Assembly (NCBI GenBank): GCA_964016885.1
Contig: OZ024748.1
Coordinates: 21,576,001-21,640,000, forward strand
DNA length: 64,000 bases
From: Eledone cirrhosa
Lineage: Eukaryota
Direction: 5' to 3'
The notes under the pieces were generated by a model. It had not been told where the DNA came from. It saw only the letters and a program-made list of their open reading frames with translations, and did no database searches. The position numbers and the translations under genes are program-made. Positions 24,246 to 24,446 of the stretch are shown one piece after another (position 1 is the stretch's first letter; the number at the start of each line of letters is the position of its first letter).

Positions 24246-24446
24246 AACGAAGGAAGTGTGGTAAGGAACCAGGTGGACCATAACGCACCAAAGCACTCAA
24301 TACTTGAGGTAGTAGAGTGGGTAATAGGAACCAGTAAGACCCCGACAGCTGCGCTCAAGCCGTTTCGACGGCTAATTCGAATTAGCTAATAGAATTAGCC
24401 GTCGAAACGGCTTGAGCTCAGCTGTCGGGGTCCTACTGGTTCCTCT
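24246..24446 (-). mobile_element. (TA)n-associated palindromic element family with hammerhead 3' half (other copies 168-300, 45751-45820, 60149-60352, 61611-61760)
   Basis: Shared sequence aaggaagtgtggtaaggaacc...gtagtagagtgggtaatagg...gaccccgacggctgagctcaagccgtttcgacggcta; inverted repeat about 24326-24444. Confidence 0.78.

Follow-up and report, generated by a model that had tools for sequence, protein, structure and literature searches.

Abundant palindromic repeats in Eledone cirrhosa as probable head-to-head terminal pieces of a Hydra-clade Penelope-like retrotransposon

Introduction

The window analysed here is a stretch of 64,000 nucleotides from Eledone cirrhosa (GenBank assembly GCA_964016885.1, contig OZ024748.1; G000:C8:21576001-21640000 of a 3.0-Gb animal assembly). 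It contains several copies of a repeat in which the 3' half of a hammerhead ribozyme is placed, inverted, on both sides of a centre. What kind of element leaves such copies, and why do they break where they do? The original prediction, made from the window alone, was that cDNA synthesis stalls at ribozyme stem II and primes itself by folding back. The repeat was followed through the assembly and its arms, centres and ends were compared with those of a full-length parent element.

Results

The copy under study is flanked by (TA)n tracts at 24213..24245 and 24445..24604, both recognized by inspection of the sequence. Its long, tailed arm (24246..24378, minus strand) is 97% identical to L096:4855-4992, parent positions ~+7 to +141, and its short arm (24391..24444, plus strand) is 98% identical to L096:4854-4907, positions +6 to +59, where L096 is the parent described below and +1 is the A of AGTCC (L096:4849). 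The long arm contains the hammerhead 3' half plus a tail of ~80 nt, and the short arm stops at the 3' edge of hammerhead stem I in the parent fold. Between the arms lies a 13-nt filler that repeats the arm start (24379..24391); it is likely a locally templated end-joining insert, and such centres vary between copies. The hammerhead 3' core, consisting of GAAA, stem III with a palindromic loop, and GUC, occupies 24404..24426 on the plus strand and corresponds to part of the three-way junction in the parent fold, with the predicted ribozyme cut between 24426 and 24427. A different interspersed repeat starts directly after the right (TA)n tract (24605-24920), and similar sequence lies beside several other loci.

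Inverted arms were confirmed at the three sites that had been called palindromes, at 24326-24378/24392-24444 (53 nt, 96% identity), 60149-60209/60212-60272 (61 nt, 95%) and 61611-61663/61664-61716 (53 nt, 79%), and the order GAAAC, stem III, GTC, GGGGTC was as described. Palindromy covers part of each copy only, because the ~80-nt tail is confined to one side; the term palindrome is correct for the arms and incorrect for the tail. By arm alignment and comparison with the parent, 60149..60356 (plus strand) is an inverted short arm plus long arm of an older subfamily, and 61611..61754 (plus strand) is an older, decayed short-plus-long pair. The copy reported at 168-300 is a single long arm (163..298, minus strand, start ~+11, 87.5% identical to the parent) and, as had been noted, ends at the same place as the other copies. 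Comparison with the parent added a fifth, internally joined copy at 45749..45823, which lies in (TA)n and links a partial inverted short arm to a distal long-arm segment without duplication of the core.

Genome-wide, a 23-mer from the arm gave 53,660 exact matches and the reversed-pattern control gave 0, an abundance of palindrome arms far above chance. The 30 best genomic copies all lie in (TA)n. In them one arm stops at TTCGTT, and the other reaches only GGTTCCT, ~80 nt before that point; the outer ends are fixed at +141 (long) and +59 (short). A long arm was combined with a short one in 92 of 95 classified head-to-head pairs (4 further pairs of 99 were unclassifiable), and kilobase-long insertions obey the same rule. 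The short end is also the end of full-length copies and of tandem-jump structures; since full-length copies end there, it is likely a start site of reverse transcription and not the end of a fold-back.

Among 100 position-ordered arms, 71 had an inverted partner of their own family with part of the core, and 6 were long arms cut before the core. Some arms are single, and some form head-to-head chimeras with other hammerhead families. The arms are near-invariant and both change together from subfamily to subfamily, while the centres are variable (29 different centres among 33 pairs) and include added bases and parent sequence. Because the centres differ between copies, each copy represents a separate joining event, and the central hairpin, which had been taken for a native one, is the junction of two arms.

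The parent was found through those position-ordered loci whose arms continue upstream into shared sequence. Seventeen of the 100 arms run into a common ACCCC, TTGANAA, G, CGGCTA, and 4,865 genomic copies carry this 5' ribozyme half; the claim that the 5' half is always replaced therefore fails, the half being kept as TTGANAA and not as CTGANGA. The parent L096 (G000:C1:11224000-11233900) reads, in order, (TA)n, an inverted tailed arm with a terminal repeat of ~800 bp, a truncated copy, ribozyme, tail, a 719-aa open reading frame (ORF), terminal repeat, ribozyme, short end and (TA)n. Partial-tandem terminal repeats, an inverted 5'-truncated copy and an optional tail are the anatomy of endonuclease-bearing (EN+) Penelope-like elements (PLEs). 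The expectation of a reverse-transcribed element with a type I hammerhead was thus borne out by an RT-encoding parent, and a full-length parent does exist, but the motif proposed for it, GACCCC-CTGA(T/A)GA, was not recovered as written. Parent candidates based on CTGANGA were discarded: of 41 matches, 30 were inspected and none was the parent, all being junction accidents or ribozymes of other families, and a second CTGANGA-type pattern gave 5 matches, none from the palindrome family.

The unit length of the family is 3.1-3.5 kb. Four tandem full-length units with a period of ~3,542 bp and 99.7-99.9% identity were observed at G000:C1:91475110-91488763 (L166-L169). In L096 itself, the downstream terminal repeat (L096:7532) is without ~425 bp found in the upstream copy (3981-4410), and the ends of this segment are not intron-like.

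The 5' core of the parent ribozyme is UUGANAA, with U3:A8 in place of the CTGANGA form, so searches with CUGANGA miss this half. In the first 100 parents listed, position 8 is A throughout, all four bases occur at position 7, and position 3 is split between T (86) and C (14). A three-helix junction was present in the minimum free energy folds of 3/3 parents (z -0.5, -2.3 and -1.7). In an alignment of 25 copies, 96% of cells pair, and covariation analysis gave 0 double changes among 25 near-identical ribozyme sequences. Rfam gave no hammerhead match on the parent ribozyme; on the window, the 150 of 222 rows listed were all sub-threshold, mostly miRNA models on TA repeats. Core positions 3-9, GAAA and NUH fit a predicted type I hammerhead, and the U3-A8 variant is described from Schistosoma PLEs in the part of PMC4209133 that treats them. 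The subfamily with a mismatched C3/A8 core (14/100 listed; for example L070:1433-1548) may be catalytically dead yet amplified.

The 719-aa ORF of L096 is a single ORF containing an RT with a YRDD motif. Its top fold matches were telomerase RTs (E ~2e-7); Pfam returned 0 matches and a PDB sequence search nothing useful. A GIY-YIG-like endonuclease was assigned at the C terminus by motif only (VIY..YIG, R, H, E and N aligned with homologs). The protein may accordingly be described as a telomerase-related RT with a putative GIY-YIG endonuclease, of the EN+ Penelope-like kind. It has 2,035 homologs, the best among the matches listed being mostly ~40% identical. DKT, a CxCX5C linker, CxxC and CxH flanking E and N, and the lack of CCHH are marks of the Hydra clade, and the N-terminal motif is RWR in L096 and 4 of 10 aligned homologs and RWK in the other 6. 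From published Hydra sequences compared by eye, the family appears to be new within the Hydra clade and otherwise an ordinary member of it. The palindromes are almost certainly terminal pieces of this Penelope-like retrotransposon, and an abundant repeat with the look of a miniature inverted-repeat transposable element (MITE) is reclassified as retrotransposon ends.

The inner ends of the arms cluster at two places. Of 100 core-anchored arms, 80 start at -7..+12 (the anchor itself begins at +12), which upholds the clustering of breakpoints inside the extended stem II region. Among 176 tail-anchored arms, a set partly chosen for cores, 101 start at -7..+12, 26 reach further upstream and 49 start downstream. 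The hotspot lies past the proximal stem II helix in the long stem-II loop, with +1 within a weak predicted distal helix. TYAGT at the hotspot is conserved in an otherwise variable loop, and a TATA-like box stands at -29 to -31 in 4/4 subfamilies checked; an initiator and a TATA box at such spacing are general promoter features. Palindromes complete to +1 number 3,027; a hand count of the first 50 gave A in 66, C in 17, G in 15 and T in 2 ends as the cDNA base beyond +1. Without 7 one-base spacers, C outnumbered T by 11 to 1, which means that 11 ends have an additional G at -1 and a single end has A there (P=0.006), and none of 100 parents listed has G at -1. Copying of an RNA cap gives a terminal C in cDNA, so this excess favours a transcription start, although A, and not the C that a cap would give, follows in 66 of the 100 arm ends.

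At 9 junctions, spread over 8 loci, a piece of the ORF is fused to a restart at -3..+4. Thirty ORF-bearing loci were considered, 16 of them with a long ORF. Of these 16, 2 have their start downstream of the hotspot and the remaining 14, from 11 independent loci, extend through it without exception, an outcome with a chance of 0.2^11 (~2e-8) for the independent loci. A stall of cDNA at stem II, as originally supposed, is disfavoured by these 14 copies. None of the 16 long ORF copies starts at +1, so plain run-off cannot describe full-length copies, which need read-through multimers, circular RNA or repeated jumps. In contigs of unknown kind, a depth step was seen at the hotspot together with loose ends at L096:4909 and 4989; the step was left uncounted because depth is not copy number. 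The locus L158:1376-2036 has three tandem units that each start at -3, two of which end at the same ORF base (257-nt unit), as if the RT had circled one RNA fragment twice. Conserved TYAGT below a TATA-like box makes a capped transcription start the likely cause of the main hotspot. Published PLE promoters with initiators sit in the terminal repeat, according to the relevant parts of PMC2377424 and PMC3846280.

The second hotspot lies exactly at the predicted cut GUC/GGGG, at +42. In one haplotype, 179 long arms had both bases before GGGGTC changed and 7,022 arms were intact; at the two control offsets examined in that haplotype, 8 matches were obtained at -3, where symmetric centres are excluded by design, and 13 at +4. 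Inspection of 71 of the 179 arms gave 56 true ends, 13 intact sites with an extra G and 2 with an insert, and true ends made up 7/7 and 10/13 of the control arms inspected. Adjusted for pattern stringency, ~140 arms begin at the cut versus ~10-12 at neighbouring offsets. The opposite arm ends at the same bond in 20 of the 71, in 17 with a one-base spacer, and pairs with both arms at the cut and a one-base spacer cannot be made by fold-back. Reciprocal cases, few in number, comprise A-rich inserts exactly between GTC and GGGG (2 loci) and GTC joined to +1 with 0-5 bases between (6 loci), as is expected if RNAs with 3' ends at GUC exist. The upstream copy in 4 of these 6 joins itself starts close to +1, a result that a pause would produce as well. 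Judged by these junctions, the +42 hotspot is, with good probability, the genomic footprint of ribozyme cleavage in vivo.

In 30 of 36 unselected pairs both arms are of one haplotype (8.7 expected at random), which fits fold-back and two primers on one RNA equally. Pooled discordance between arms at source-level alleles was unenriched (6 observed, 5.4 expected from mutation). The arms of L118 differ at three adjacent diagnostic bases, and in 31 young pairs 3 of 9 mismatches fall on one allele fixed elsewhere (P ~0.006 after correction). The copy in the window is among these; its two arms are distinguished by two alleles, and each allele is found fixed on both arms at other loci. A minority of pairs (L118 and the one young-subfamily site) thus point to two templates.

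Other hammerhead families form the same miniature palindromes, with centres ~5, 40, 65 and 120 nt upstream of their cores (few copies each, partly from biased samples). As these distances differ, the pattern is not tied to stem II. A second family of mini-palindromes, also in (TA)n, is represented at window 905-1105; both of its arms have a complete CTGATGA..GAAAC hammerhead, and its centre falls in the stem I 5' strand, ~31-38 nt below the TATAAATA box of longer copies (L113, L074). At window 9180-9480, each arm of a long palindrome carries a minimal hammerhead (CTGAAGA..GAAAGTAC), and its centre holds a short tandem repeat; in L043 a relative is joined to the long arm of the palindrome family. 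Hammerhead-like motifs of two further repeat families occur at window 42717 and 31108 (both minus strand), and the family at 42717 is also palindromic in L039, L053 and L177. In another hammerhead family (L032, L038, L044, L046, L125, L138), 6/6 copies begin ~115-130 nt upstream of the core near CAGTT, and 4 of the 6 stand head to head with the palindrome family's long arm (biased sample).

Discussion

The observations are best explained, on balance with reasonable likelihood, as ends of a Hydra-clade PLE inserted in (TA)n, a tailed and a short arm standing head to head as run-off cDNAs. In the original prediction the short arm would instead be a DNA-templated copy of the long arm, made when the RT stalls at stem II and the cDNA folds back and primes itself. 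Arms that usually share one haplotype (30/36) and often the same 5'-end type would suit such a copy, as would a hotspot within the predicted extended stem II, but the site is traversed by 14/14 long ORF copies, made from RNAs able to form the whole of stem II, and other hammerhead families break at other distances from the core. The native apical loop, which a fold-back should retain, is kept in 0 of 50 centres listed, whereas loop-less or one-base-spacer centres are common; the short end also terminates full-length copies and tandem-jump structures, and the arms of the pair in the window disagree at two alleles, each of them fixed elsewhere on both arms. Fold-back is largely refuted by the one-base-spacer pairs, 17 of them at the cut site, and we consider it very improbable. 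Still less credible is a fixed, palindromic, MITE-like non-autonomous element that spreads as a unit and whose centres vary through later cruciform breakage or deletion. Very high copy number, a TA target and near-identical arms are what such an element would give, and later centre deletions probably shaped some copies, such as the long arms cut before the core (6/100). The sequence is, however, continuous with an RT-encoding parent, and the ends are asymmetric and do not form a pair of terminal inverted repeats; from one subfamily to the next the two arms change in step, the centres hold added bases and parent sequence, and single arms and chimeras with other families occur. Origin as a DNA-transposon MITE with terminal inverted repeats, named beforehand as the finding that would overturn the retroelement reading, was rejected on the asymmetric ends, the variable centres and the RT parent. 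A non-LTR retrozyme was also rejected, the mini-palindromes being head to head and without the 5' hammerhead half.

A closer competitor, though an unlikely one, accepts two joined cDNAs and ascribes the main hotspot to an RT pause at the distal stem-II helix or to a nuclease processing site, and +42 to a pause at the base of stem III. The position of +1 in a predicted helix, the adjacency of +42 to stem III, the absence of the extra G from most ends and the restart of copies near +1 after GTC-to-+1 joins all agree with it. Against it stand the read-through in 14/14 long copies, the enrichment of the extra G, the conservation of TYAGT in a variable loop at TATA-like spacing, and the second family, which breaks ~31-38 nt below the canonical TATAAATA (few copies); a pause, moreover, would not create RNA 3' ends at GUC.

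Each palindrome, then, very probably consists of two cDNAs that ran off the 5' end of an RNA. The element protein would open both strands of a TA repeat, and reverse transcription would be primed close to the RNA 5' end from two fixed positions, in most cases on a single RNA molecule. Each cDNA would halt at the beginning of its template, usually a capped transcription start within the stem-II loop and more rarely the 5'-OH end that the hammerhead leaves on cleaving. A few bases may then be added to the cDNA ends, which would either be closed through microhomology or templated end joining or jump to the end of another RNA; polymerase-theta-type joining is a known end-joining route. In L1 twin priming, two primers on one RNA produce an inversion, and the minus-strand strong-stop DNA of LTR elements is a short cDNA that starts close to the 5' end of the RNA and runs off it. 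Unlike in these systems, both start sites here would be fixed and target-primed, the copied segment is duplicated, and no tRNA primer or integrase would be involved.

Much of this architecture is already on record in the portions of the PLE literature cited here, including inverted truncated copies, tails, TA targeting, internal promoters and the U3:A8 core. The Hydra clade, including Hydra-1_Obim, is described by Craig et al. (2021), in the main account of PMC8557442, with a single ORF, a C-terminal endonuclease, DKT, the CxCX5C linker, CxxC and CxH around E and N, no CCHH, a (TA)n target, a hammerhead in the terminal repeat, an inverted 5'-truncated copy and an optional tail, all as found here. 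That account gives RWK, a length of <3 kb and a tail of 30-40, compared with RWR, 3.1-3.5 kb and ~80 nt in the present family. The Hydra hammerheads in the relevant part of its supplement have CTGANGA, whereas the present ribozyme has a U3:A8 core, a long stem II and a long stem III; since Hydra-1_Obim has another hammerhead, it represents a different family (comparison by eye). For Poseidon PAc of Anolis, Frangieh et al. (2024), in the sections of PMC11167929 on its activity, report that both strands of AT-rich DNA are cut and extended in vitro and that the RT starts at two sites downstream of the hammerhead, one on either side of the tail; the long-plus-short rule found here matches such both-strand extension with two starts. 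The same sections report that cleavage is dispensable in vitro and that no RNA-seq reads start or end at the cut; here, in contrast, the cut is the precise starting point of ~2% of the long arms of one haplotype, and most arms end at a likely transcription start. The minimal PLE hammerheads of Cervera and de la Pena (2014; PMC4209133) share, in the portion concerned, the type I fold, the palindromic loop III, the G10.1-C11.1 pair, the U3-A8 variant (Schistosoma Cercyon) and motif pairs on opposite strands 100-700 bp apart; the present ribozyme differs in its stable stem III and in having a likely promoter within stem/loop II. Penelope of Drosophila virilis and Pen2a of Adineta vaga, in the passages on them in PMC2377424 and PMC3846280, likewise have an initiator promoter inside the terminal repeat and an inverted repeat with a tail at one end. 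Truncation hotspots at a start site or ribozyme cut were not found reported in the literature covered, which was mainly open-access and exclusive of Repbase and Dfam. The later parts and supplements of bioRxiv 10.64898/2026.07.22.740005 and PMC13282606 could include the palindrome family.

Whether PLE hammerheads cut in vivo is a question posed in the pertinent parts of PMC4209133, PMC11167929 and PMC8557442, the first of which offers no in vivo evidence in that part, and the regeneration of PLE terminal repeats is one posed in the corresponding part of PMC2377424. A tentative reading, which we hold to be doubtful as it stands, is that the Penelope pseudo-LTR works like a true LTR of U3-R-U5 form, with transcription starting inside the hammerhead and a strong-stop-like cDNA jumping to a ribozyme-cut 3' end. 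RT would start near the RNA 5' end and the jump would rebuild the terminal repeat. With a transcription start inside the hammerhead, the ribozyme would be complete only in the downstream repeat and would define a 41-nt R. The palindrome family offers thousands of independent junctions at base resolution. As these junctions point to exact positions for the predicted start site and cut site and for the two RT start sites, all of these are open to direct testing, and the same counting of junctions can be applied to any high-copy PLE. If the U3-R-U5 reading is true, the mini-palindromes would be failed jumps, and the genome would record both products of hammerhead cleavage.
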